From positions 91,202 to 155,201 of IMG/VR virus record IMGVR_UViG_3300017761_003320: 64,000 nt of DNA; one strand, given 5' to 3'. Positions within the stretch are counted from its first letter, which is position 1. The number at the start of each line of letters is the position of its first letter. The translations under genes and the position numbers were made by a program. The DNA is from a virus. Below the pieces are notes generated by a model, which was not told the origin of the DNA, made no database searches, and saw only the letters and a list, made by a program, of their open reading frames with translations. This document shows, piece after piece, positions 50,776 through 63,759 of this stretch.

Positions 50776-51336
50776 ATGTCAAGCAAAAAACATTATGTTA
50801 AGAACGCAGACCTATACGCAGCCATGGTTGAATACCGCAAGGCGGTAACTGAAGCAATAGAGAAGGGTGAACAAAAACCGCGAGTGCCTTTCTATATCGG
50901 CGAGTGTATCATGAAGATTGCGACGCATCTAGCCTTCAAGCCTAACTTCTCAAACTATCCATTTCGTGAGGAAATGATTTCAGACGGCATCGAAAATTGT
51001 CTGCAATATATTGGTAATTTTGACCCAGGTAAGTCTCAGAACCCATTTGCATACTTCACGCAGATAATCTATTTTGCTTTTATTCGACGCATTCAAAAAG
51101 AAAAGAAATATCTTTATACAAAATATGCGGCCATTGAGAGAGCAAATCTTATGGATGAGACGAGCGATGTTCAAGAATCTGACAAGCGGTCTGGGTCTAG
51201 ATTCAATGATGATATTAGCTACGGTGAATGGTCGCAAGAGCAAATGGAAAAATTCATGACCAGCTTTGATGAGAGCAGGCGAAACAGAAAGAAACGTAAG
51301 AAAACCATTGACAAGGTAGAACAAGACGTGATATGA
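50776..51336 (+). CDS. gp55: Late-transcription sigma factor
   Basis: HYVKN, YIGECIMKIATHL..KPNFSNY.FREEMISDGIENC, NPFAYFTQIIYFAFIRRIQKEKK. Confidence 0.96.
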   Translation: MSSKKHYVKNADLYAAMVEYRKAVTEAIEKGEQKPRVPFYIGECIMKIATHLAFKPNFSNYPFREEMISDGIENCLQYIGNFDPGKSQNPFAYFTQIIYFAFIRRIQKEKKYLYTKYAAIERANLMDETSDVQESDKRSGSRFNDDISYGEWSQEQMEKFMTSFDESRRNRKKRKKTIDKVEQDVI

Positions 51337-51337
51337 T
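51308..51337 (+). promoter_or_regulatory. Sigma70-like promoter for gp47 (probably leaderless)
   Basis: TTGACA-N18-TATGAT; ATG 51344 begins 7 nt after the -10 box. Confidence 0.65.
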
Positions 51338-51343
51338 GGCTGT

Positions 51344-52405
51344 ATGAAAGTTGCAATAGTCACAGATACCCATTTTGGCGCTAGAAATGATAGCTCGGAT
51401 TTCCTCGATTATTTTGTGAGGTTTTATGATGAGCTATTTTTTCCTACCCTAGAATCCAGAGGCATTAAAACTATATTACATCTAGGTGATATAGTTGATC
51501 GCCGCAAATTTATATCATATGTCACTTTGAGGCGTATGCGGCAATGCTTTATCGATCGTTTGGTCGATTATGATACTCATATTCTCGTTGGTAATCATGA
51601 TATTCCATATAAGAATACAAATGATATCAATGCAATGCGTGAGTTATTTGCTGGTAATGATAATATAAATCTATACATGGATCCGGCTGAAGTTACTATT
51701 GGCGGATCCGATATGCTATTTCTACCTTGGATCAATCAAGAAAACTATCAAGCTAGTATTGATTTGATCAAGAATACTAAGGCTCAAGTGGCCATGGGTC
51801 ATCTTGAAGTCAAAGGCTTTGACATGTATCGCGGTATGCCTTCACATGAAGGATTTGAGCCTGTCACATTTGATAAATTTGACATGGTATTCTCTGGTCA
51901 CTATCATCACATGTCGCGCAAAGGTAATATTCATTATCTTGGTGCACCCTATGAAATGATTTGGTCTGATTGCGCTGATCCTCGCGGGTTTCATATTTTT
52001 GATACTGAGACACGAGAATTAGAATTTGTGCAAAATCATATGACCATCTTTAAGAAGGTTTGGTATGATGATGAGGGTAAGACGCTAGAAAAGCTTACTG
52101 AGTCTATGCCTGATATGTCAGGTAAACATGTTAAGGTTATTGTTCAAGGTAAAACTAACCCATATTGGTTTGATTTGTTTATGGGTAAGATATACGCGAT
52201 GTCGCCTCTCGATGTCAGCATAGTTGAAGATCATCGTAATATGGATGTGATTAGTGATGATGAATTGTTAAGTGAGGCCGAAGATACTTTAACAATACTG
52301 TCAAAATATATTCAAGCACTTGAGATTGGTGTTGACAAACCTAATCTTGAAAAATTAATGCGTGGACTTTATAATGAGGCTATACTGATGGAGTCATCTG
52401 AATAA
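51344..52405 (+). CDS. gp47: Recombination endonuclease subunit (Mre11/SbcD-like)
   Basis: TDTHFGAR, HLGD..DRRK, GNHD, GHLE..GF, FSGHYH. Confidence 0.95.
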   Translation: MKVAIVTDTHFGARNDSSDFLDYFVRFYDELFFPTLESRGIKTILHLGDIVDRRKFISYVTLRRMRQCFIDRLVDYDTHILVGNHDIPYKNTNDINAMRELFAGNDNINLYMDPAEVTIGGSDMLFLPWINQENYQASIDLIKNTKAQVAMGHLEVKGFDMYRGMPSHEGFEPVTFDKFDMVFSGHYHHMSRKGNIHYLGAPYEMIWSDCADPRGFHIFDTETRELEFVQNHMTIFKKVWYDDEGKTLEKLTESMPDMSGKHVKVIVQGKTNPYWFDLFMGKIYAMSPLDVSIVEDHRNMDVISDDELLSEAEDTLTILSKYIQALEIGVDKPNLEKLMRGLYNEAILMESSE

Positions 52406-52406
52406 T

Positions 52407-54128
52407 ATGGCTATTCATTTCAAAAAGGTTCGGTGGAAGAATTTTCTATCCACTGGAAATGCTTTCACAGAGGTTGAATTAGATCGCAATCAAAATACTT
52501 TGGTTGTCGGTACGAACGGTGCTGGCAAATCGACGATTCTAGATGCTCTGTGCTTTGGTCTATATGGCAAGCCGTTTCGTAAAATTAAGAAAGACCAATT
52601 AGCTAATTCGATCAATGGCCGTGATGTTGAGGTTGAGATTGAATTTAATGTTGCCGGTAGCTCCTATCTGATTCGCAGAGGTATCAAACCAACCGTATTT
52701 GAAATCCATCGCGATGGACAAATGATGGACCAACTTGCTGCATCTCGTGATCAGCAAGAAATGCTAGAGCGCACCATTCTGCGAATGAATATGAAATCAT
52801 TCACACAGATCGTGATTCTAGGTTCATCATCATTCGTGCCTTTCATGCAGCTACCGACATCAACTCGTCGCGAGGTGATTGAAGACCTGCTTGATATCCG
52901 CGTGTTTTCTACCATGTCTTCTCTCCTTAAAGATCGTGTGAGTGCAAACAAAAGCGAATTGGTATTAGCTGACAAAGAAGTTTCTTCAGTCGAAGAAATG
53001 ATTCGCATACAAAAATCTCGCGATGATCATGATGAAAAAATCAAAGCTGATACCATAGAAAAGCTTGAGGATAGCATCAAATTTCTGCAAGATCGAATTG
53101 ATACTCAATCTGGTTCTATCGAAGATTTGATGGCCAAGATAACAAATGAAACCTCTGATATGGTTGATATATCTCTATTGCGTGAGCGCATGACCAAGCT
53201 TAATGAATTGGAAAAGAATCTAGGTCAGAAGCGTAGCAAAGCTTTAAAGATGGTTACATTTTATAGTGAAAATGATAATTGTCCAACATGCTCTCAGATA
53301 ATTAGTGAGGCCCTCAAGACTGAGAAGATCGCAAGTAAGCAATCGACAATTACGGAAGTCGAACAAGCATTAGAAAAATTATCTTCTAATATTGATACCT
53401 TGAGCATTAGTATAAATGATACTAAGCTTAAGGTTGATCGCATCGAAAAACTAAATCGCAGCATAGTCGATATCAATACCGAGATTGCCGCAGATAATCG
53501 CGAGATAAAGACATTACAGCGTCAGATAGCAGATTTACTAAAGCCGCGTATAGTCACCGATCAAGATACACTTGATGATCTAAGGCTTCGACTTAAAGCT
53601 GCTAATGATCGCAAGATTGAACATATGAAGCAGAAGGAGCTTCTTGAAGTTGCAACTGTAATCCTGCGCGATTCTGGTATTAAATCTCGTATCATAAAGC
53701 AATACATTCCAATTATCAATTCGCTAGTGAACAAATATTTGGCCATGATGGATTTCTTTGTCAAATTTGAACTTGATGAATCCTTCGAAGAAAAATTGCT
53801 ATCACGACATAGAGATGACTTTACCTATGACTCTTTTAGCGAAGGTGAGAAAATGCGAATCGACCTTGCTCTATTATTTACTTGGCGCGCAATCGCTAAG
53901 ATGAAAAATAGTGCTAGCACCAATTTGCTTTTGCTTGATGAGGTATTTGATGCATCGCTTGATACAAACGGCTGCGATGATTTTCTGAAGCTACTACAGT
54001 CACTAGATAATACTAATACCTTCATCATATCTCACAAGGGTGAGATTCTGCAAGACAAATTTAAAGACATCATACGCTTTGAGAAGCATAAAAACTTCTC
54101 TCGCATAGCAGGAAATAATTTGCAATGA
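52407..54128 (+). CDS. gp46: Recombination ATPase subunit (Rad50/SbcC-like)
   Basis: WKNFLSTGN, GTNGAGKST, CPTC zinc hook, FSEGEKMRIDLAL, LLDEVFD. Confidence 0.96.
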   Translation: MAIHFKKVRWKNFLSTGNAFTEVELDRNQNTLVVGTNGAGKSTILDALCFGLYGKPFRKIKKDQLANSINGRDVEVEIEFNVAGSSYLIRRGIKPTVFEIHRDGQMMDQLAASRDQQEMLERTILRMNMKSFTQIVILGSSSFVPFMQLPTSTRREVIEDLLDIRVFSTMSSLLKDRVSANKSELVLADKEVSSVEEMIRIQKSRDDHDEKIKADTIEKLEDSIKFLQDRIDTQSGSIEDLMAKITNETSDMVDISLLRERMTKLNELEKNLGQKRSKALKMVTFYSENDNCPTCSQIISEALKTEKIASKQSTITEVEQALEKLSSNIDTLSISINDTKLKVDRIEKLNRSIVDINTEIAADNREIKTLQRQIADLLKPRIVTDQDTLDDLRLRLKAANDRKIEHMKQKELLEVATVILRDSGIKSRIIKQYIPIINSLVNKYLAMMDFFVKFELDESFEEKLLSRHRDDFTYDSFSEGEKMRIDLALLFTWRAIAKMKNSASTNLLLLDEVFDASLDTNGCDDFLKLLQSLDNTNTFIISHKGEILQDKFKDIIRFEKHKNFSRIAGNNLQ

Positions 54129-55126
54129 GACGCGCATTAATTACAGGCATTACTGGACAAGATGGTTCATATCTGGCTGAATTGCTGCTAGAGAAAGGAT
54201 ATGAGGTTCACGGTATCATCCGTCGTTCCTCATCTTTCAATACTGGACGAATTGATCATATCTTTGACAAATTAAAGCTACATTTTGGTGATGTTACTGA
54301 TGGTAGCGCAATGACATCTGTCATCTCGCAAGTGAGGCCGCATGAGATATACAATCTTGCGGCACAGTCTCATGTCAAGGTTAGCTTTGAGATTCCTGAA
54401 TATACTCTTATGACTGATGGGCTAGGTGTGCTAAAGATACTTGAAGCTGTTCGGTCTGCAGGCATACAAGATAATTGTCATATCTATCAAGCTAGCACAT
54501 CAGAAATGTTTGGTTCGACACCTGGGCCACAAGATGAAGATTCTCCGTTTCAACCTTGCAGTCCATATGGATCTGCGAAGCTTTATGCACATTGGCTATG
54601 CGATAACTATCGCAAGTCATATGGTATGCATATTTCATCAGGCATTCTATTCAATCATGAGAGCCCACGCAGAGGAGAGACATTTGTAACTCGTAAGGTT
54701 ACTAAGGCTGCTGCTCGTATCGCAAAAGGTTCTACGGAACCTTTAGTGGTCGGTAATATTCATGCCATTCGTGATTGGGGTCATGCTAAAGATTATGTTG
54801 AAGCCATGTGGCGTATGGTTCAACAAAAAGATCCAGATGACTATGTAATCGCAACTAACCGTTGCTTGTCAGTAAAATACCTGATAGATTTAGCATTTGA
54901 TTATGCAGGTGTCACTCTTGAATGGCATGATAGTAGAAACGGTGAATTTGCTGCGGATGCAAAGACTGGGCATATTTTGGTGATCACCGATCCAAAATAT
55001 AGACGACCTAATGAGGTTGACTTTCTGCAAGGCATACCTACCAAAGCTAAAGATGTGCTTGGTTGGGAACCAACTACGTCTTTTGAAGATTTGATTAAGG
55101 AGATGGTTGAACATGACCTCAAATAA
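54125..55126 (+). CDS. gmd: GDP-mannose 4,6-dehydratase
   Basis: ALITGITGQDGSYLAELLL.KGYEVHG, NLAAQSHV.VSF, QASTSE, SPYGSAK, LFNHESPRRGETFVTRK, RDWGHAKDY. Confidence 0.96.
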   Translation: MRRALITGITGQDGSYLAELLLEKGYEVHGIIRRSSSFNTGRIDHIFDKLKLHFGDVTDGSAMTSVISQVRPHEIYNLAAQSHVKVSFEIPEYTLMTDGLGVLKILEAVRSAGIQDNCHIYQASTSEMFGSTPGPQDEDSPFQPCSPYGSAKLYAHWLCDNYRKSYGMHISSGILFNHESPRRGETFVTRKVTKAAARIAKGSTEPLVVGNIHAIRDWGHAKDYVEAMWRMVQQKDPDDYVIATNRCLSVKYLIDLAFDYAGVTLEWHDSRNGEFAADAKTGHILVITDPKYRRPNEVDFLQGIPTKAKDVLGWEPTTSFEDLIKEMVEHDLK

Positions 55127-56036
55127 TATTATTGTCTTTGGTGGTACAGGTATGCTTGGTCGCGCCGTTGTTGAACGTCTGCGACGTGATGGTGAGCGAG
55201 TATATGCTTTAGGTAGCTCCGATTGTGATCTTACAATATTAGATGATATCTCAATGGCTATTGCTGAAATAAAACCTAAAGCAATATATCATTGTGCGGG
55301 TCATGTTGGTGGGATTCTCAATAATCGCGATAATCAATTAACATTTCTTATCAGAAATACACAAATGGGATTGAACGTAGTCGATGTTGCTACCAAATAT
55401 AAAATTCCAAAGTTAGTATTTGCTGGTTCATCTTGCATCTATCCACGCAATTGTCCACAGCCAATGACTGAGCTTATGATTGGATCTGGTCCACTTGAGC
55501 AGACAAATAGAGGTTATGCAGTCGCAAAACTTACAACACTTGAAGCCGTTAATTTTGCTAGAGAAAAAGGCTTCAATTATATGACAGTCATGCCCTGCAA
55601 TTTGTATGGCCCTGGTGATAATTTTGCTGAAGGCGGACATGTGCTATCTGCTTTGGTTCGTAAAGTATGTGATGCTCGTCATAATAAAAGCGAAACTGTT
55701 GAGGTCTGGGGAACGGGATCCCCACGCAGGGAATTTCTGCATACGAGCGATGCTGCTGACGGTATCGTGACTGCATCTGAAAAGCTTAATGATGCAGTAG
55801 TTAATATAGGCAGTGGTGAAGATTTGTCGATAGCAGAGTTGGTTTTACTTGTGGCTGAGGTAGTCGGTTGGAATGGTGTATTGAAATTTGATACATCTAA
55901 GCCTGATGGTACACCAAAGAAGCTACTAGATATAAGCAAGCTAAAATCTGTAGGCTGGTCTCCTAAGATCGATCTACCTTATGGTATTGAAATGTTAGCG
56001 AAGGAATATGTGGATGCAACTTTTAAAACCCAATGA
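55113..56036 (+). CDS. fcl: GDP-L-fucose synthase
   Basis: GGTGMLG, AGHVGGI..N, GSSCIYP, LE.TN.GYAVAK, PCNLYGPGDNF, HV..AL, WGTGSPRREFLH, KPDGTPKK. Confidence 0.92.
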   Translation: MTSNNIIVFGGTGMLGRAVVERLRRDGERVYALGSSDCDLTILDDISMAIAEIKPKAIYHCAGHVGGILNNRDNQLTFLIRNTQMGLNVVDVATKYKIPKLVFAGSSCIYPRNCPQPMTELMIGSGPLEQTNRGYAVAKLTTLEAVNFAREKGFNYMTVMPCNLYGPGDNFAEGGHVLSALVRKVCDARHNKSETVEVWGTGSPRREFLHTSDAADGIVTASEKLNDAVVNIGSGEDLSIAELVLLVAEVVGWNGVLKFDTSKPDGTPKKLLDISKLKSVGWSPKIDLPYGIEMLAKEYVDATFKTQ

Positions 56037-56541
56037 CCCTCTGCTTAGGCAGAAAAGCGAGGAGTTTGATTTCTCATCTCCACAGATAGATCCCATGCAA
56101 CTGCATGAAATGCTTCGTGATAAGATATGCGAACTAAAGACATTGGGATTATCTGCGCCACAACTAGGTATCATGGTTCGTGTATTTGCATTTGGTAATC
56201 CAGATGATCCAAATAGCATCATGTCGGTATTCAATCCGAGAATTGTTAATTATGGTTCAGAACTTGATGTCTATGAAGAACAATGTTCCACCTTTCCTGG
56301 TCTATTCTTGAAAGTTAAAAGACCAACTACTATCAGAATGCGTTATTCTAATCAAGAAGGTAATACTGAGACTCATAATTTTCAGGGTATCACAGCCAGA
56401 GTCGCATTACATGAAATCGATCATCTAGATGGCATTCTATTCACAGAGCGGGCAAATAGATATCATCTTGATCAGGCCAAACGCAGAAAGCTAAAACTTG
56501 ATAGGGTGAGAAAAGCGAATGATCGACAAGCTGCTCTGTGA
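56008..56541 (+). CDS. def: Peptide deformylase
   Basis: GLSAPQLG, EEQCSTFPG (variant of EGCLS), ARVALHEIDHLDG. Confidence 0.88.
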   Translation: MWMQLLKPNDPLLRQKSEEFDFSSPQIDPMQLHEMLRDKICELKTLGLSAPQLGIMVRVFAFGNPDDPNSIMSVFNPRIVNYGSELDVYEEQCSTFPGLFLKVKRPTTIRMRYSNQEGNTETHNFQGITARVALHEIDHLDGILFTERANRYHLDQAKRRKLKLDRVRKANDRQAAL

Positions 56542-57349
56542 TGAGCTTACTAGATCCTCTTCTGATACTGAGTGCGCTATTCTCCTCTCTGGTGGGGTCG
56601 ATAGTTTATCAGTGGCTTTTGCGGCGCAAAGATTAGGTAAGAAGATTCATGCTTATACCTTTCGATTAACTGGACAGACCAGTTATGATTCTGACAAGGC
56701 CATTGAAGTATGTGATATCATGGACTGGAATTGTCATGTCATAGAAGTACCTGTTGGTAGATTAGAAGAAGATTTTAAATATCTTGCTAACACTATTAAG
56801 TGTGTAAAAAAGACACACTTTGAATGTTGTTTTCCGTTTATTCATGTATACCCTTACATAAAACAGCGTGAAGTTTTAAGTGGCTGGGCAGCTGATGGTT
56901 ATTATGGCATCAGCAAGAAAGCTGTATTGCATTATTCGCAGACTAAAGAAAAGCTTGATGAATTTCGTGATCAGTATTTTTCTGATGATGCTAGAGCTGG
57001 ATATAACTGGCATAAGCGCATAGCAGATATTCATGGTAAGAAACTTATAACACCTTATCTATGTCAAGAGGTCAAAGATTTCTTTTATACCATGGATTGG
57101 AATCAACTAAACAAACCTTACCAGAAGCATCATGTGGTCGAAGCTTTCCGTAAAGAGTTTGATGCTATTGGTAAATTTAAAAAGCATATCAACTTACAAC
57201 TTGGTAGTAATATTGATGTGCTGTTTGAGACTCTACTATATAATAGCAGAATTAATTTTAAGGAACGCAGTAGAGTCATGGATATGTGTAGGGATTGGGC
57301 ACAGCTACAAAAAGATACTGGACCTAGCTTAGATCAATTTCTAACTTAG
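56519..57349 (+). CDS. Asparagine-synthetase-like ATP-dependent amide ligase (synthetase domain only)
   Basis: PP-loop LLSGGVDS, VLSGWAADGYYG, ITPYL; no N-terminal Ntn glutaminase domain. Confidence 0.75.
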   Translation: MIDKLLCDELTRSSSDTECAILLSGGVDSLSVAFAAQRLGKKIHAYTFRLTGQTSYDSDKAIEVCDIMDWNCHVIEVPVGRLEEDFKYLANTIKCVKKTHFECCFPFIHVYPYIKQREVLSGWAADGYYGISKKAVLHYSQTKEKLDEFRDQYFSDDARAGYNWHKRIADIHGKKLITPYLCQEVKDFFYTMDWNQLNKPYQKHHVVEAFRKEFDAIGKFKKHINLQLGSNIDVLFETLLYNSRINFKERSRVMDMCRDWAQLQKDTGPSLDQFLT

Positions 57350-57352
57350 CCA

Positions 57353-57381
57353 TTGACATCTAGATCAATATGGAGTATTAT
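57353..57381 (+). promoter_or_regulatory. Sigma70-like promoter for the first MTase (probably leaderless)
   Basis: TTGACA-N17-TATTAT; ATG at 57389. Confidence 0.7.
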
Positions 57382-57388
57382 ATCTGTT

Positions 57389-58537
57389 ATGACAAAGTAT
57401 CAGCCGTATACCGTTCAAGATGTTAAAGACAGCTCAGCCCGCGAGCTGTTCACCGTAGTCAGCACATTTGCTGGCGGCGGTGGTTCTAGCACAGGCTATC
57501 GCCTTGCTGGTGGTAAGGTCATTGCTATCAATGAATTTGTCGAAGAGGCTATCAAAACCTATTCGACAAACTTTCCTGATACCAAAATCGTGCCAGGTGA
57601 TATCAAAACCTTAACTGGTAATGATCTACTAAAGGCAGCTGGGCTAAAGCCTGGTGAACTTGATATTCTGGATGGTTCTCCTCCTTGTTCTGCTTTCTCG
57701 GTAGCAGGCAAGCGTGAGAAAGGCTGGAACAAAGAGAAGTCATACAGCGATGGTATGAAGGTTGAGAATATCGAGGATTTATTCCTTGAATTTATTCGCA
57801 TCGCTGAAGAAATTCAACCCAAAGTTATTATTGCTGAGAATGTCAAAGGCATCACAATGGGAGAGGCCACAAAAAAGCTGAATGAGTTTATCAATGCATT
57901 TAGTAATATTAAGCCTGGTTATCATGTAACTTATGAAGTATTGAGTGCTGCAAATTTTGGTACTCCTCAAGGCCGTGAGCGTACATTCTTTGTATGCATA
58001 CGGCATGATATTGCAGACAAGGTTGGTATTCATATGTTCAACGCCAATCAAACTGTATTTCCGAATCCTATTACACCTGAGCATATTTCAATTAGTCAGG
58101 CCTTTGAAAATCTGGTTAATGATCCAGAAGAAGAAAAGATGCTTGAAGATTATGTGCAAAACTGTTGGCAGAAGAAGTGGGTTGAGATGTTACCTTTCAA
58201 CCCCTCTAAACATACAAAGCCATCAATGCCAGAGTTTCGTGATGTAAATCCTAAAGCATCTTTGTTCAATATGATTCGACCTGCGCCGCATCTACCTAGC
58301 CCGACTGTAACACAAGCTGGTCAGAAGCGCGGGGTATCTGGTGTGCTTCACTATGCGAAACATCGTAAATTAACTGTTATGGAATTAAAGCGAGTAATGG
58401 GTTTGCCTGATGATTATCAGCTTACTGGTTCATTCGATCAGCAGGCCGAGCGTATTGGGCGTATGGTTGCGCCAAAGATGATGTGCGCTTTAGCATCTAA
58501 TATCTATGAGAATGTGCTAAAGCCCTACAAGTCATGA
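57389..58537 (+). CDS. C5-cytosine DNA methyltransferase-fold enzyme, putative carboxymethyltransferase (paralog 1)
   Basis: FAGGGG, GSPPCSAFS, ENVKG, QGRER; motif X reads ERIGRMV instead of the usual GN(S/A)V. Confidence 0.85.
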   Translation: MTKYQPYTVQDVKDSSARELFTVVSTFAGGGGSSTGYRLAGGKVIAINEFVEEAIKTYSTNFPDTKIVPGDIKTLTGNDLLKAAGLKPGELDILDGSPPCSAFSVAGKREKGWNKEKSYSDGMKVENIEDLFLEFIRIAEEIQPKVIIAENVKGITMGEATKKLNEFINAFSNIKPGYHVTYEVLSAANFGTPQGRERTFFVCIRHDIADKVGIHMFNANQTVFPNPITPEHISISQAFENLVNDPEEEKMLEDYVQNCWQKKWVEMLPFNPSKHTKPSMPEFRDVNPKASLFNMIRPAPHLPSPTVTQAGQKRGVSGVLHYAKHRKLTVMELKRVMGLPDDYQLTGSFDQQAERIGRMVAPKMMCALASNIYENVLKPYKS

Positions 58538-59700
58538 TATCTAATTACCAACCCTATTTCATGAAAGATGTGCGCGAATCATCCGCGCGAGAGAGGTTCA
58601 ATGTCATTTCGACCTTCGCTGGTGGGGGTGGCTCATCTTTAGGTTATCGTCTAGCAGGTGGTAAGGTGCTATGCGTAAATGAGTTCGTCGAAGAAGCGAT
58701 AAAGACGTATACGCATAATTTTCCAGACACCAAGGTAATACCTGGGGACATCAAGGGCTTATCAGGCAAGGACTTGATGGATGCTGTGGGTATTAAGAAA
58801 GGTGAGCTAGACATATTGGATGGGTCGCCCCCTTGTTCTGCTTTCTCTACTGCAGGCAAGAGACACAAAAATTGGAATAAGACAAAGCTATACAGTGACG
58901 GTAAGAAGGTCGAGAATATTGAAGATTTGTTTCATGAATACATTCGTATAGCAACTGATATTCAACCAAAGGTTATTATTGCTGAGAATGTGCGCGGCCT
59001 AACTATTGGTAAAGCTATAGCCAAGCTAAATGAATTTATCTCAGCGTTTGAAACCATTCTGCCTGGATATTTGGTGACATACGAAGTCCTACATGCTTGC
59101 GATTTTGGTGTACCACAAGAACGACCTCGCACCTTTTTCGTCTGTGTTAGACAAGATGTTGCAGAAAAGGTCGGGCTTCATATGTTTAATATGAATACCG
59201 AGGTTATTCCAAATTCAACGTCGAATCACATATCAATGGGTGATGCTCTATCCGATGTAGCCCTTGACATGGATGAGATACAAATGTTAAAAGACTATAT
59301 TCAAAACAATTCTGAGAACCAGAGATACTGGCTTTCTATCTTACCTAAGAACCAAACAAAGAGGTTGAATCCATGCTCACCGGAGATTCCGAAGGAGCTA
59401 AATCCGAACGAGAATTACTTCACTTTGATTCGGACGTGTGCAAACTTGCCAAGTCCTACCCTGACTGCGAATGGATCCAAACGTTCAGGCGCAGGTCTGT
59501 TTCATTGGAACGAGGATCGCAAGTTCACGATACGAGAACTGATGAGATTGCAGGGCCTACCGGAGGATTACGAACTGACGGGAACCTTCGACCAGAAAGC
59601 GGAGCGAATCGGGAGAATGGTAGCACCGAAGGTGATGGCTGAGATTGCTAATCGAGTATATGATAGAATTTTGAAACCGTATAAAGAGGCTACACAATGA
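58534..59700 (+). CDS. C5-cytosine DNA methyltransferase-fold enzyme, putative carboxymethyltransferase (paralog 2)
   Basis: Same motifs (FAGGGG, GSPPCSAFS, ENVRG, QERPR, ERIGRMV) with a divergent target-recognition region. Confidence 0.85.
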   Translation: MISNYQPYFMKDVRESSARERFNVISTFAGGGGSSLGYRLAGGKVLCVNEFVEEAIKTYTHNFPDTKVIPGDIKGLSGKDLMDAVGIKKGELDILDGSPPCSAFSTAGKRHKNWNKTKLYSDGKKVENIEDLFHEYIRIATDIQPKVIIAENVRGLTIGKAIAKLNEFISAFETILPGYLVTYEVLHACDFGVPQERPRTFFVCVRQDVAEKVGLHMFNMNTEVIPNSTSNHISMGDALSDVALDMDEIQMLKDYIQNNSENQRYWLSILPKNQTKRLNPCSPEIPKELNPNENYFTLIRTCANLPSPTLTANGSKRSGAGLFHWNEDRKFTIRELMRLQGLPEDYELTGTFDQKAERIGRMVAPKVMAEIANRVYDRILKPYKEATQ

Positions 59701-60371
59701 CAAAATTTACATTTGCAACCCGTGATGAGGGTTTCGACAACCATATCAATGCATCTATTCGTCACTATGGTGATTTGTGGAATGATGTGCTTTCAATGTC
59801 ACAGTATTTTGTCGAAGATTATACGACAGTCGTTGATATCGGTTGCTCGACTGGCAAGCTACTTAAAGCTATGATTGCACAGAATACATTTGCCCCATAT
59901 GCATCTTATGTTGGTGTTGAGGTTGAACCTGATTTCTATCCTGGATTCGATCAAGATATGGGTCAATACCCAAACCTTCACTTTGAGAGAAGTGATATCA
60001 GGCCATTCAAATTCAAGAACTGTTCGCTTGTTACGTCCATTTTTACTCTGCAATTCATGCCACAACGTGATCGTCAAGATGTAATTAATTCCATCTATGA
60101 TGGCCTGCATAGAGGTGGGGCATTTATTTTTGCAGAAAAGACTGTGGCTGAGTCGCCGCGGATTCATGAGATTCGTACCTTTACATATTATGATTTCAAA
60201 CGCGAATCCTTCACTACAGATGATATTATGGATAAAGAGCGTACACTACGTCATATGATGAAGCCAAATACGCGAGAGGAATTGGTAAATATGGTAAGCC
60301 GTGCTGGCTTTGATCATATAGATTCCTTCTGGCAGAACCACGCATTTACTGGTTTCATAGCCATTAAGTAG
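59697..60371 (+). CDS. cmoA: CmoA-like carboxy-SAM synthase
   Basis: FDNHINASIRHY, VVDIGCSTG, IFTLQF, GGAFIFAEK, YDFKR, KERTLRHMM parallel the CmoA motifs (F.DM..RSVPGY, DLGCS.G, NFTLQF, GG.L..SEK). Confidence 0.75.
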   Translation: MTKFTFATRDEGFDNHINASIRHYGDLWNDVLSMSQYFVEDYTTVVDIGCSTGKLLKAMIAQNTFAPYASYVGVEVEPDFYPGFDQDMGQYPNLHFERSDIRPFKFKNCSLVTSIFTLQFMPQRDRQDVINSIYDGLHRGGAFIFAEKTVAESPRIHEIRTFTYYDFKRESFTTDDIMDKERTLRHMMKPNTREELVNMVSRAGFDHIDSFWQNHAFTGFIAIK

Positions 60372-60384
60372 CCACGTTTACCTA

Positions 60385-60413
60385 TTGACAGCATGGTGGT
60401 CATATAGTATAAT
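60385..60413 (+). promoter_or_regulatory. Consensus sigma70 (early) promoter, probably leaderless
   Basis: Exact TTGACA-N17-TATAAT; ATG 60420 begins 7 nt after the -10 box. Confidence 0.9.
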
Positions 60414-60419
60414 GACCCC

Positions 60420-62555
60420 ATGCAAAACCTTAAGCCCCAAGAGATCAAGGCCCTTGTCGAAGCGACCAAGGGTCTTGACCGTTTCGCCCGGCTTCTAGCC
60501 ACAGAAAACATCACGGTCGAACACTCGCCCACGGCGACGGCTTCTTTCGACCTTAAGCGGCGCCTGCTGACGCTGCCTATGTGGTCAGGCATGGAAGAGC
60601 CTGTATACCACATGTTGTCTTTGCATGAGGTCGGTCATGCATTGTTTACTCCGACCGATGGTTGGTCAAAGATCATTGATCCTTCCGAAGATAAACTTCT
60701 TCGCCATTATGTCAATGTCATTGAGGACGCGCGTATTGACCGCCGTATGAAGGCTAAGTTCCCTGGTGGTCGCCATGACTATGATTTTTCTGCCAAGTAT
60801 CTTGTCGAGCAAAACTTCTTTGGCATCAAAGATCGTTCTCTGGATTCCTTATCCTTCATCGACCGCCTGAATGTCCATTTCAAGGTTGGTCAAGAAGTTA
60901 CCGCGCCCTTTGATGATGATGAAAGCAAGTTCCTGCTTCGCATCGAAACCACGTCATCTTTTGATGATGTGGTAGATTTGGCGCGTGAGATCCTGCAGTT
61001 TGCCAAAGATCGTCGCGATGAAATCACCCAAGGTGAGGGTGGTGACATCGAAATGATGTTTGATTTCGATGGCGATGGTGATGGTGACGGCGATGGTGAT
61101 GAAGGTGAGGCTGGTGATGCTACTGGTGGTCGCTATGGTGACCGAGGTGGTCTGAATCGTGTCGACATTGGTTCCACCACTCAGGACAATTTCGAAAAGA
61201 TGTTGATGAGAAAGCACATCGATCCGAAAAAGACCAAGGGTATGGATTATATCAACGTGCCTGAAGTCAAGGATTATTCTTCCTTTATCATCAAGCATGA
61301 CGTGCTTTTGCAGGCCCTAGATGAGAGTCTGACTCGCATCGGTAGCGTAAGCGCATCCATGTATTCGAATAAGATGAATGAACGGTTCAAGGAATTCGTC
61401 ACGTTCAATACCAAGGCTGTGTCTTACATGGTCAAAGAGTTTGAATTGAAGAAGGCCGCGGCCGCTTATGCTCGCGCTAAGGATTCCAAGACTGGCATCA
61501 TCAATCCGAACAAGGTTCATTCTTACAAGTATTCTGAGGATATCTTTCGGCGCCTGACGACTCTGCCTAACGGTAAGAGCCATGGTATGGTGATGTTCAT
61601 TGACTTCTCTGGATCGATGCAATCCAATATGCTGGGTACCATTCAACAACTTATCTCGCTTGTCGAGTTTTGCCGCAAGACTGGTATCTCGCATCGCGTG
61701 TATGGTTTTACTACTGGCGTAGGTCGCACCCTTCGTCGGCATAAAACCCATGTATCTATCTCGAAGGAGCCTGGTGATATCACATTCAGCTCTGGTTCTT
61801 TTGACTTGCTTGAGCTGTTTAATGATCGCATGAACCGCTCGACCTATACCAGCATGGCCCGCCATCTTCATGAATTTGGTGTGGCTATGGGTGAGCGTCG
61901 TAGCTGGCACCAACAAAAGGGTGATGAATGGATTTTTCAGAATGACGTGATTGGCCTTGGCTCCACTCCGCTTAATCAGACGATTGTCTTGGCGCATAAG
62001 ATTATCCAAGATTTCCGTAGTGAGACTAAGCCAGATGTGGTGCATACGGTATTCTTGACCGACGGTGAATCTGACGGTTTGGAATACAATTCTCGCCATC
62101 ATTGGAATCCAATCATCATGCGTGACCATCGCACCAAGCACCAAGCTTTCGTCGATGGTTCGACTGAACAGACTGAGTTTCTTATCCGTAACCTACGGTC
62201 ACAACAGAATGTAAATGCGGCTGTATTCCGCATCGTCAATGGTGTTAGCGAACTTAGCCGAATGAAGCAGGGTATTGATACCGCTGCTATGACTGGCAAG
62301 CTTCGCAAGGACAAACATCTGGTGCTTCCTGGTGTGCTCGGTGCCACGCAGTTCTTTGCCGTCCTTGGTGGCAAGAACTTGAATGTTGAGGATACAGAAT
62401 TGGAAGACTTTGGTGGCGTGGCTGTGACGACTAACAAGCTTGCCAAAGCTTTTGTAAAGGCAAGTAACAAGAGGGCTGCAAGCCGCACCATGCTTGTCAA
62501 GTTCATTGACATGATCGCTGGTCATGCAACCAAAGTTGCCATTGACAAGCGGTAA
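60420..62555 (+). CDS. CobT-like VWA protein with N-terminal HExxH domain
   Basis: LLATENITV, TASFD...R.L.LP.W, HEVGHAL, NVIEDARID, MIDAS DFSGSM, TPLN, FLTDGE; acidic DG linker. Confidence 0.85.
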   Translation: MQNLKPQEIKALVEATKGLDRFARLLATENITVEHSPTATASFDLKRRLLTLPMWSGMEEPVYHMLSLHEVGHALFTPTDGWSKIIDPSEDKLLRHYVNVIEDARIDRRMKAKFPGGRHDYDFSAKYLVEQNFFGIKDRSLDSLSFIDRLNVHFKVGQEVTAPFDDDESKFLLRIETTSSFDDVVDLAREILQFAKDRRDEITQGEGGDIEMMFDFDGDGDGDGDGDEGEAGDATGGRYGDRGGLNRVDIGSTTQDNFEKMLMRKHIDPKKTKGMDYINVPEVKDYSSFIIKHDVLLQALDESLTRIGSVSASMYSNKMNERFKEFVTFNTKAVSYMVKEFELKKAAAAYARAKDSKTGIINPNKVHSYKYSEDIFRRLTTLPNGKSHGMVMFIDFSGSMQSNMLGTIQQLISLVEFCRKTGISHRVYGFTTGVGRTLRRHKTHVSISKEPGDITFSSGSFDLLELFNDRMNRSTYTSMARHLHEFGVAMGERRSWHQQKGDEWIFQNDVIGLGSTPLNQTIVLAHKIIQDFRSETKPDVVHTVFLTDGESDGLEYNSRHHWNPIIMRDHRTKHQAFVDGSTEQTEFLIRNLRSQQNVNAAVFRIVNGVSELSRMKQGIDTAAMTGKLRKDKHLVLPGVLGATQFFAVLGGKNLNVEDTELEDFGGVAVTTNKLAKAFVKASNKRAASRTMLVKFIDMIAGHATKVAIDKR

Positions 62556-62570
62556 GCTATCTGGTATAAT
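62542..62570 (+). promoter_or_regulatory. Consensus sigma70 (early) promoter
   Basis: Exact TTGACA-N17-TATAAT overlapping the end of the VWA gene. Confidence 0.9.
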
Positions 62571-62595
62571 ACACACATACACAATGGAGAGAGTG

Positions 62596-63759
62596 ATGAC
62601 CACTTCAACTGACAACCGTGAACTTTTGATCCAAACTGCTATCTCTCGTTTTGGCGAGAATGCAGTCCTGACTAAGGAAGCTTTGATCGACTTGGCTTCA
62701 GAGCTTGGTTTGCCGCGGCCGCGCTGGCTTTTTAATGACTCGGCTAATCGGGTCGAACGTGGTAAGTATCAGATTCCTGCTATCGCACATGCACAGGTTA
62801 TTCCTATGACGGCTCGCCAACAAGGTAAAAAGTTCGATCCAAATGCGGTATCCGAACATGACTACGTGATGGTCCCCGCTAAGGACAAGACCTATGTACC
62901 GTTCGGCGACTTCAAAGATGTCGAACAGATTATTCGCAGCCGCATTTTCTTTCCGGTATTCATCTCCGGTTATTCTGGTAACGGCAAGACCTTCATGGTC
63001 GAGCAGGCTTGCGCCCGCGCTGGTCGCCCGATGGTTCGCATCCAGATGTCTCGTGAGACTGACGAGGATGACCTGATCGGTGGCTTCCGTCTGATCGACG
63101 GTGAGACCAAGTTCCTCAAGGGTCCAGTGCTTCGGGCCATGGAGCTGGGTGCAATCATGCTCCTTGACGAAATGGACCGCGCCGATCCTACTAAGGCGAT
63201 GTGCTTGCAAGGTATTCTTGAGGGCAAGCCTTACTTCGTCAAAAAGACTGGTGAGGTTGTGTACCCGGCTGAAGGCTTCAACGTCTTTGTGACGGCTAAC
63301 ACCAAGGGCCGCGGCTCTGATGATGGTCGCTATGTTGCAGCCTCCATGCTTGACGACGCTCTGCTTGAGCGTTTCCCGATCACTCTTGAGCAAGAATATC
63401 CTAACACGAAGATCGAAACCAAGATCCTCACGGCTCAGTTTGATGCGCCAACTGATAATGACAAGGGCTTTATCGAGCATTTGATTGCATGGGCAGATGT
63501 CATTCGCCGTTCCTTCGCTGAAGGTGCGACTGATGAGATGATCTCCACGCGCCGCTTGACGCATATCATCAAGGCCTACAAGATGTTCAACGATCGCCAA
63601 CATGCGATTGGCCTTTGTATCAATCGTTTTGACGAGGAGACTAAGAAGTCTTTCCTCGACCTCTATCGCAAGGTCGACCCGACCCTGCCCAAAGCTCCGG
63701 AGCAGCCTGCTCCAGAGGCGGATGCCAATTCGCTCAAAGGCGATGACATTCCGTTCTAA
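62596..63759 (+). CDS. cobS: CobS/MoxR-like AAA+ ATPase
   Basis: GYSGNGKT, ETDEDDLIGG, LLDEMD, TANTKGRG, LLERF, ISTRRL. Start chosen at ATG 62596 after GGAGA. Confidence 0.88.
   Translation: MTTSTDNRELLIQTAISRFGENAVLTKEALIDLASELGLPRPRWLFNDSANRVERGKYQIPAIAHAQVIPMTARQQGKKFDPNAVSEHDYVMVPAKDKTYVPFGDFKDVEQIIRSRIFFPVFISGYSGNGKTFMVEQACARAGRPMVRIQMSRETDEDDLIGGFRLIDGETKFLKGPVLRAMELGAIMLLDEMDRADPTKAMCLQGILEGKPYFVKKTGEVVYPAEGFNVFVTANTKGRGSDDGRYVAASMLDDALLERFPITLEQEYPNTKIETKILTAQFDAPTDNDKGFIEHLIAWADVIRRSFAEGATDEMISTRRLTHIIKAYKMFNDRQHAIGLCINRFDEETKKSFLDLYRKVDPTLPKAPEQPAPEADANSLKGDDIPF

Follow-up and report, generated by a model that had tools for sequence, protein, structure and literature searches.

The DNA examined here, a stretch of 64,000 nucleotides referred to below as the window, is the final 64 kb (positions 91202-155201) of the IMG/VR virus record IMGVR_UViG_3300017761_003320. 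On its + strand, between 56519 and 60371, it carries a cassette of four tightly packed genes in the order cmoY-cmoX1-cmoX2-cmoA, encoding a predicted amide ligase, two predicted DNA cytosine C5-carboxymethyltransferases and a predicted synthase of carboxy-S-adenosylmethionine (Cx-SAM). We consider this cassette, with a probability of roughly 0.82, to be an orthologue of the CmoA-CmoX-CmoY system of DNA hypermodification which has acquired two diverged transferases. This reading is based on homology, motifs, gene order, selection and phylogeny, from which we infer the chemistry, the amine, the target motifs and a role in resisting restriction. The pathway has already been published, and the present locus is one more instance of it; what is new is a duplicated DNA transferase gene whose copies differ in the part of the protein that reads DNA.

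The published pathway, that of Synechococcus phage S-B43, was established by experiment (Yang et al., Nat Commun, December 2025; PMC12783734). The CmoA of that phage makes Cx-SAM. Its transferase, SpCmoX, accepts Cx-SAM only and writes 5-carboxymethylcytosine (5cxmC) at GC motifs, and the AsnB-like ligase SpCmoY adds glycine with ATP; S-B43 virion DNA carries the resulting glycine amide. In the 1.9 Å structure 8YF3, Arg350 of SpCmoX contacts the cofactor carboxyl at the position of HhaI Asn304, and the R350N variant is inactive with both donors. The same authors counted 5,615 candidate CmoX, 4,257 CmoA and 2,251 ligase genes in viral collections, predicted other amine substrates among CmoY-like ligases and drew a parallel to the engineered methyltransferase M.MpeI N374K (PMC12783734). 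We found no further literature on CmoX.

The original prediction for this DNA, made from the sequence alone, had proposed that a glutaminase-less ligase, two proteins with the fold of C5-methyltransferases (C5-MTases) and a CmoA-like protein lie side by side, that Arg replaces the motif-X Asn in both MTases, and that the phage makes its own Cx-SAM, carboxymethylates cytosine and then amidates the carboxyl. The four contiguous genes are borne out by the open reading frames (ORFs) and by the Pfam and NCBIfam matches, the two arginine codons are where it placed them, and homology of the four proteins to the experimentally tested S-B43 enzymes supports the proposed pathway. It had also suspected that a similar cyanophage pathway was in print. 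This was correct, and the idea is thus not new. That the two transferases probably lack the GpC specificity of S-B43 was not part of the prediction.

Homology and catalytic motifs of the cassette proteins

The two transferase genes, cmoX1 (57389..58537, +, 382 aa) and cmoX2 (58534..59700, +, 388 aa), both match the DNA_methylase family PF00145, with 196 and 195 bits respectively. Both products carry the motifs FAGGGG, SPPC, ENV, QxRxR and, as motif X, ERIGRMV. The SPPC motif occupies residues 109-112 of CmoX1 (numbered from an upstream TTG, see below) and 98-101 of CmoX2, and motifs VI and VIII, whose Glu and Arg contact the target cytosine, read ENV and QGRER in CmoX1, ENV and QERPR in CmoX2. 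Each protein matches the SpCmoX structure 8YF3 over nearly its full length (E 4e-112 for CmoX1 and 1e-105 for CmoX2), with 55% and 52% identity to the S-B43 enzyme. The Arg of ERIGRMV, encoded by CGT at 58460..58462 in cmoX1 and by AGA at 59614..59616 in cmoX2 (both +), aligns with Arg350 in the ERVGRMV of 8YF3 and hence with HhaI Asn304. SPPC, ENV, QxRxR and GRMV are present in all 108 CmoX sequences collected, and CmoX2 has no extra domain and no change in a catalytic motif. From homology and motifs, CmoX1 and CmoX2 are predicted to be carboxymethyltransferases using Cx-SAM.

The product of cmoA (59697..60371, +, 224 aa), a predicted Cx-SAM synthase, matches TIGR00740 (8e-29) and E. coli CmoA (4GEK; 2e-21, 28% identity), and is 54% identical to the assayed CmoA of S-B43, SpCmoA (E 1e-85). 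The residues that contact S-adenosylmethionine (SAM), Tyr39, Asp62, Gly64, Ser66 and Phe137, are conserved. In the comparison set, for which 84 related viral loci were fetched (85 with the present one), CmoX and CmoA are linked in most loci.

By analogy with S-B43, the phage CmoA would convert host SAM and prephenate to Cx-SAM. In CmoX1 and CmoX2 the Cys of SPPC would attack cytosine C6 and the carboxymethyl group would be moved to C5, the motif-X Arg holding the donor carboxylate, to give 5cxmC. CmoY would then adenylate the 5cxmC carboxyl for coupling to an amine, with glycine as the likeliest candidate, yielding 5-glycylcarboxymethylcytosine, and the hypermodified cytosine may block host restriction enzymes. 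The tandem duplication having occurred within the lineage, CmoX1 would keep the ancestral target-recognition domain (TRD) and CmoX2 a diverged one, so that the pair would most likely read two motifs and provide denser protected cytosines; compared with the GpC of S-B43, these motifs are probably either more restrictive or of another kind.

The ligase and its amine

The cmoY gene (56519..57349, +) encodes a predicted ATP-dependent amide ligase of 276 aa that consists of an AsnB/beta-lactam-synthetase-type synthetase domain only. It matches PF00733 (5e-12, profile positions 13-133) and TIGR01536 (positions 248-369 of 517) and carries the PP-loop SGGVDS at residues 24-29. Since the Pfam and TIGR matches are limited to the synthetase part, CmoY is without a glutaminase domain, as had been proposed. 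The nearest solved relatives of a profile of 20 CmoY sequences are the beta-lactam synthetase 1JGT (5e-7), CarA and AsnB, all of which adenylate a carboxyl before an amide is formed.

CmoY shares 49% of its residues with SpCmoY (E 6e-89, 253 bits). Of 44 residues that do not vary within the CmoY family, this glycine ligase has 42, and its two changes are conservative. With 253 bits, CmoY also belongs comfortably to the similarity cluster published for SpCmoY, in which about 30% identity served as the threshold (PMC12783734). The amine is thus predicted most likely to be glycine. A different amine, whether another amino acid, ammonia or a polyamine, would make the final base differ from that of S-B43. 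We regard this as the less probable outcome although it deserves serious weight, given that identity to SpCmoY is only 49% and that other amines have been predicted among CmoY-like ligases (PMC12783734); the near-complete agreement at the invariant positions and the place of CmoY within the SpCmoY cluster speak against it, and for glutamine-derived ammonia in particular the missing glutaminase domain makes the proposal unlikely.

A tandem transferase pair with diverged recognition domains

CmoX1 and CmoX2 have 62% of their residues in common. Their clades are sisters in a tree built from 108 CmoX sequences (Shimodaira-Hasegawa-like approximate likelihood ratio test support 92), in which both copies fall outside the SpCmoX clade. 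The sister relationship indicates a tandem duplication within the present phage lineage. The two copies did not evolve at the same pace, the stem branch of CmoX2 (0.51) being four times longer than that of CmoX1 (0.13). The difference is also unevenly distributed along the proteins: in windows of 30 columns, the two are 60-83% identical in the catalytic core and 33-50% identical in the TRD (58031..58378 in cmoX1 and 59176..59523 in cmoX2, both +), and at many TRD positions the two clades have fixed different residues. The CmoX1 TRD is 51-63% identical to TRDs of single-copy CmoX proteins from four other clades, whereas that of CmoX2 reaches no more than 34-42% with the CmoX TRDs set against it, its sister CmoX1 included. 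CmoX1 is therefore the conservative, ancestral-type copy and CmoX2 the changed, fast-evolved paralogue.

Both copies have nevertheless been maintained. All four genes have ratios of nonsynonymous to synonymous substitution rates of 0.04-0.12, the TRDs taken singly have about 0.03-0.12, and an unsaturated comparison gives 0.04-0.09, so that all four genes and both TRDs are under purifying selection. The tandem pair is retained in relatives down to about 75% CmoY identity. A second type of pair occurs at eight loci between L049 and L060, where a gene of the X1 type is followed by one of the S-B43 type and then by cmoA, often with cmoY upstream. Pairs of CmoX genes within one genome thus have at least two origins, duplication in one case and combination in the other, and this independent second pair type suggests that paired copies have complementary rather than redundant roles. 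Paired CmoX genes are not mentioned by Yang et al. (PMC12783734).

If the two copies were redundant, they would recognise the same motif and the duplication would only raise the dose of enzyme for rapid genome-wide modification. All catalytic motifs and the motif-X Arg are indeed kept in both proteins, the cores are up to 83% identical and the genes can be read as co-transcribed. We nonetheless think redundancy unlikely, because divergence is concentrated in the TRD, with clade-fixed differences and distinct loops (TQAGQKRGVS against TANGSKRSGA), because each TRD is under purifying selection in a pair that has been retained across relatives, and because the independent pair type joins two distinct CmoX lineages.

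The loops just mentioned follow a TL-type motif in the TRD and form the segment that, by analogy with HhaI, we take to be the base-contacting recognition loop. The loop of S-B43 SpCmoX is short (TASG). Those of CmoX1 and CmoX2 are six residues longer, TQAGQKRGVS in CmoX1-type proteins and the derived TANGSKRSGA in CmoX2, and the same additional length is found in nearly all other readable CmoX sequences except the S-B43-type copies.

Contrary evidence from CmoA and from DNA recognition

Several observations speak against a straightforward assignment to the S-B43 system; some concern CmoA and others the recognition of DNA. CmoA scores 101 bits, below the NCBIfam TIGR00740 equivalog cut-off of 193.3 bits. 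The assayed SpCmoA, however, also falls below it, with 115.6 bits, and the cut-off therefore does not cover the phage clade. A more specific difficulty is that Arg199 of E. coli CmoA forms a salt bridge with the Cx-SAM carboxylate (PMC3663124), and that the position corresponding to it in a linear alignment is occupied by Glu in every one of the 66 phage CmoA sequences compared (SpCmoA, the present CmoA and the genes of 64 related loci). That the phage protein reads KERTL where E. coli has KRSML had been pointed out in the original prediction, together with a doubt as to the alignment of the key Arg. The difference is real, and the Arg of KERTL is variable among the 66 proteins (R 33, K 25, Q 5, V 3). 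An Arg four residues past the Arg199 position (E. coli 203), within a motif KExxLR, is invariant in 66/66. We infer that this residue takes over the task of Arg199; if the segment is helical, an Arg four positions further on would share the face of Arg199. Since SpCmoA has been assayed and yet has both Glu at position 199 and a score under the cut-off, neither feature argues against CmoA function, and the doubt over the key Arg is probably settled by the Glu of SpCmoA together with the invariant Arg at 203.

As to the recognition of DNA, a search of solved structures with the TRDs alone gave a significant match to SpCmoX only, and a weak one (27.5 and 19.6 bits), so that no specificity can be transferred from HhaI, HaeIII or MpeI. 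Palindrome avoidance provides indirect information. Markov-corrected palindrome counts were obtained for nine whole genomes, with S-B43 as the positive control, and are given here as observed/expected. S-B43 gave the anticipated picture, with strong avoidance only of sites free of GpC (CCGG 0.07, CTCGAG 0/11, GTCGAC 0/15, GACGTC 1/13). Two cyanophages without CmoX, S-CREM1 and ACG-2014d, avoid GpC sites: AGCT (0.16 and 0.29), GTGCAC (0/18 and 0/20) and AGCGCT (0/10 and 0/9), to which S-CREM1 adds GCATGC (0/11). Compared with these two, S-B43 is relaxed at GTGCAC (18/34), AGCT (0.67) and GCATGC.

In the present genome GpC sites are still avoided. Six of its eight strongly avoided hexamers contain GpC: GCATGC (0/22), TGCGCA (3/37), AGCGCT (4/28), GAGCTC (2/10), ACGCGT (2/8) and GTGCAC (8/24); the GpC-free ones are AGATCT (1/39) and GAATTC (11/47), and there is no strong avoidance of 4-mers. 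The enrichment of GpC among the avoided hexamers reaches a Fisher p of only 0.04. Three further genomes with long-loop CmoX genes behave in the same way. This persistent avoidance implies that protection is incomplete or narrow. In contrast to S-B43, therefore, the targets are probably not plain GpC: the evidence, which is modest, suggests that CmoX1 and CmoX2 do not modify every GpC. Palindrome avoidance is also shaped by host enzymes and by history. The k-mer counts indicate the cytosines that are probably unprotected (in GCA, GCG and GCT contexts) rather than those that are protected.

In the present genome, palindromes containing GGC or GCC are never avoided. It alone also shows an excess of GGCC (1.53-fold, z 12), a lead rather than a result, as is an effect of CC/GG among the hexamers (p 0.001). 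Together, the lack of avoidance and the enrichment of GGCC make a GCC/GGCC-like site a weak lead for a CmoX target. Our tentative proposal, which we hold at slightly less than even odds, is that the pair is a writer of two motifs, CmoX1 being of the long-loop, non-GpC type and CmoX2 reading a third, lineage-specific motif.

One copy, most plausibly CmoX2, might instead have left bulk protection altogether and act on single-stranded or replicating DNA, on RNA, or at a few regulatory or packaging sites. The long stem of CmoX2 and its unique TRD could be taken in this sense, as could the over-representation of GGCC. We consider such a departure improbable, more so than redundancy, since catalytic motifs and architecture are unchanged, purifying selection is strong, like that on CmoX1, and nothing in the sequence hints at RNA. 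Finally, that the transferases make ordinary 5-methylcytosine while the CmoA homologue serves the tRNA modification uridine 5-oxyacetic acid (cmo5U) is very improbable, even though Pfam and NCBIfam label the transferases only as C5 DNA methylases and CmoA lies below its family cut-off: the motif-X Arg limits SpCmoX to Cx-SAM and R350N is dead with both donors (PMC12783734), the overlapping cmoX1-cmoX2-cmoA frames leave no room for a cmoB, and CmoX is repeatedly linked to CmoA.

Genome, genomic context and distribution

The source record is 155,201 bp long, has direct terminal repeats and is rated complete. It represents an uncultured T4-like myovirus. Identity of its gp46 to the gp46 proteins of T4-like phages of Stenotrophomonas, Synechococcus, Sinorhizobium and Pelagibacter does not exceed about 47%. 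Although the nearest cultured relatives include cyanophages, no psbA was found in the whole genome, which suggests that the host is probably not a cyanobacterium. No C5-MTase other than CmoX1 and CmoX2 is present in the whole genome, nor is any enzyme of the thymidylate-synthase type, dCMP hydroxymethylase included, which excludes a hydroxymethyl-pyrimidine route. No phage chorismate mutase or SAM synthetase that could boost the precursors was found in the genome either, and SAM and prephenate must therefore be supplied by the host.

The slot that the cassette occupies, gp47-gp46-(sugar genes)-peptide deformylase-[cassette]-CobT-like-CobS, is syntenic in uncultured T4-like phages that form a broad clade. 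The genes making up the cassette vary between related loci (Y-X-A, X-Y-A, X-A, X alone, Y-X or Y-X-X-A, where Y, X and A stand for the respective cmo genes), and two close relatives, L018 and L019, have X1 and A only. Fourteen further viral contigs, which come from 13 metagenomes, have the order Y-X1-X2-A, and ENA, JGI and Logan assemblies contain at least 24 contigs with an identical CmoX2 protein, so the arrangement is not an accident of assembly. A near-identity DNA search with the cassette against 50,697 phage records gave no match; among cultured phages there are only relatives at the protein level.

We also asked whether the genes immediately upstream (54125-56541), encoding a GDP-mannose 4,6-dehydratase, a nucleotide-sugar epimerase/reductase and the peptide deformylase, belong to the system, and decided against it because many of the related loci do without the sugar genes. 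In more distant relatives the sugar genes are missing from the same slot.

Some loci have CmoX, in part with CmoY, and no cmoA in the locus DNA available (L056, L061, L063, L064, L066-L068 and L071, as well as L074, L076, L077, L081, L083, L084 and L086). In at least L077 and L081 the flanks run from gp47 to cobS, and no cmoA was found. Phages of this kind, at least those represented by L077 and L081, may use the CmoA of their host for Cx-SAM.

Gene starts and promoter-like sites

The stop of cmoX1 and the start of cmoX2 overlap by 4 nt, as do the stop of cmoX2 and the start of cmoA. An ORF beginning with TTG at 57353 (57353-58537) was considered for cmoX1 and rejected: this TTG is part of the -35 hexamer of a sigma-70-type promoter-like site, TTGACA-N17-TATTAT (57353..57381, +; 11/12 consensus), which ends 7 nt 5′ of an ATG, and independent gene callers use that ATG, at 57389, which is most likely the true start. 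TTGACA and a -10-like box are kept, with a diverged spacer, at 13 of 14 related tandem loci, L010 being the exception. The position of the site implies, as judged from the sequence, a leaderless cmoX1-cmoX2-cmoA transcript. A second, perfect site, TTGACA-N17-TATAAT (60385..60413, +), lies 6 nt 5′ of the ATG (60420) of the CobT-like gene and probably marks the 3′ end of the transcription unit of the cassette.

Such sites are not confined to the cassette. Near-consensus sigma-70-like sites end 6-7 nt before the ATGs of gp47 (51344), cmoX1 (57389) and the CobT-like gene (60420), spanning 51308-51344, 57353-57391 and 60385-60422 of the window, and at this distance the transcripts of all of these genes would be leaderless. 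The whole genome has 19 strong sites of this type in + orientation and 5 in - orientation. The longest CobS ORF (62524-63759) also contains a perfect TTGACA-N17-TATAAT site (62542-62570); according to other gene callers the real CobS start is probably ATG 62584 or 62596 (391 or 387 aa), the latter preceded by GGAGAGAG.

Comparison with related systems

The closest known system is that of S-B43, with which the cassette shares all three enzyme families (49-55% identity), encoded by adjacent genes in a T4-like phage, the SPPC Cys, the GRMV Arg, a PP-loop ligase without glutaminase domain and the same predicted product, 5cxmC and then its amino-acid amide. The differences lie in gene order (A-Y-X there, Y-X1-X2-A here), in the number of CmoX genes (one there, two here), in the relaxed avoidance of GpC palindromes, seen there and not here, and in the loop insert, the separate clade and the lack of psbA that characterise the present phage. 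M.MpeI N374K resembles CmoX in that a basic residue at the motif-X Asn lets a C5-MTase use Cx-SAM to form 5cxmC (PMC12783734), but the residue is Lys rather than Arg and the enzyme is engineered, CpG-specific, still able to use SAM and without a partner ligase; M.MpeI structures (4dkj, 8c56) match CmoX1 over the catalytic core only (E about 1e-9).

The E. coli CmoA/CmoB pathway to tRNA cmo5U (4GEK/4IWN) has in common with the cassette the CmoA fold and SAM contacts, and the Cx-SAM product shown for SpCmoA; here, however, there is no CmoB, the proposed acceptor is DNA cytosine and not tRNA U34, and Glu stands in place of Arg199, followed by an invariant Arg at 203. The ligase, like AsnB (1CT9), 1JGT and CarA (1Q15), has the synthetase domain of the PP-loop ATP-pyrophosphatase type and would proceed by adenylation followed by attack of an amine. 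It differs from the AsnB family in having no N-terminal glutaminase domain, in being about half the size and in its predicted substrate, a modified base in duplex DNA.

Implications

The locus adds no new principle, the pathway having been published and thousands of candidate CmoX genes counted (PMC12783734). Two points are of more general use. For the annotation of phage CmoA proteins, of which curated models rate the 66 aligned here below their cut-offs, a shifted carboxylate-binding Arg would offer an explanation for these low scores. For the transferases, palindrome avoidance provides a cheap screen of CmoX clades that have not been assayed, and suggests that the commoner long-loop CmoX proteins are not GpC enzymes.

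With a shared core and different TRDs, CmoX1 and CmoX2 constitute a ready pair for studying how specificity is encoded, a question named as open by Yang et al. (PMC12783734), and they are candidate DNA-labelling tools with new target motifs. If the two-motif reading is true, natural carboxymethyltransferases would span several specificities, and phages would stack them to densify the hypermodification of their DNA.

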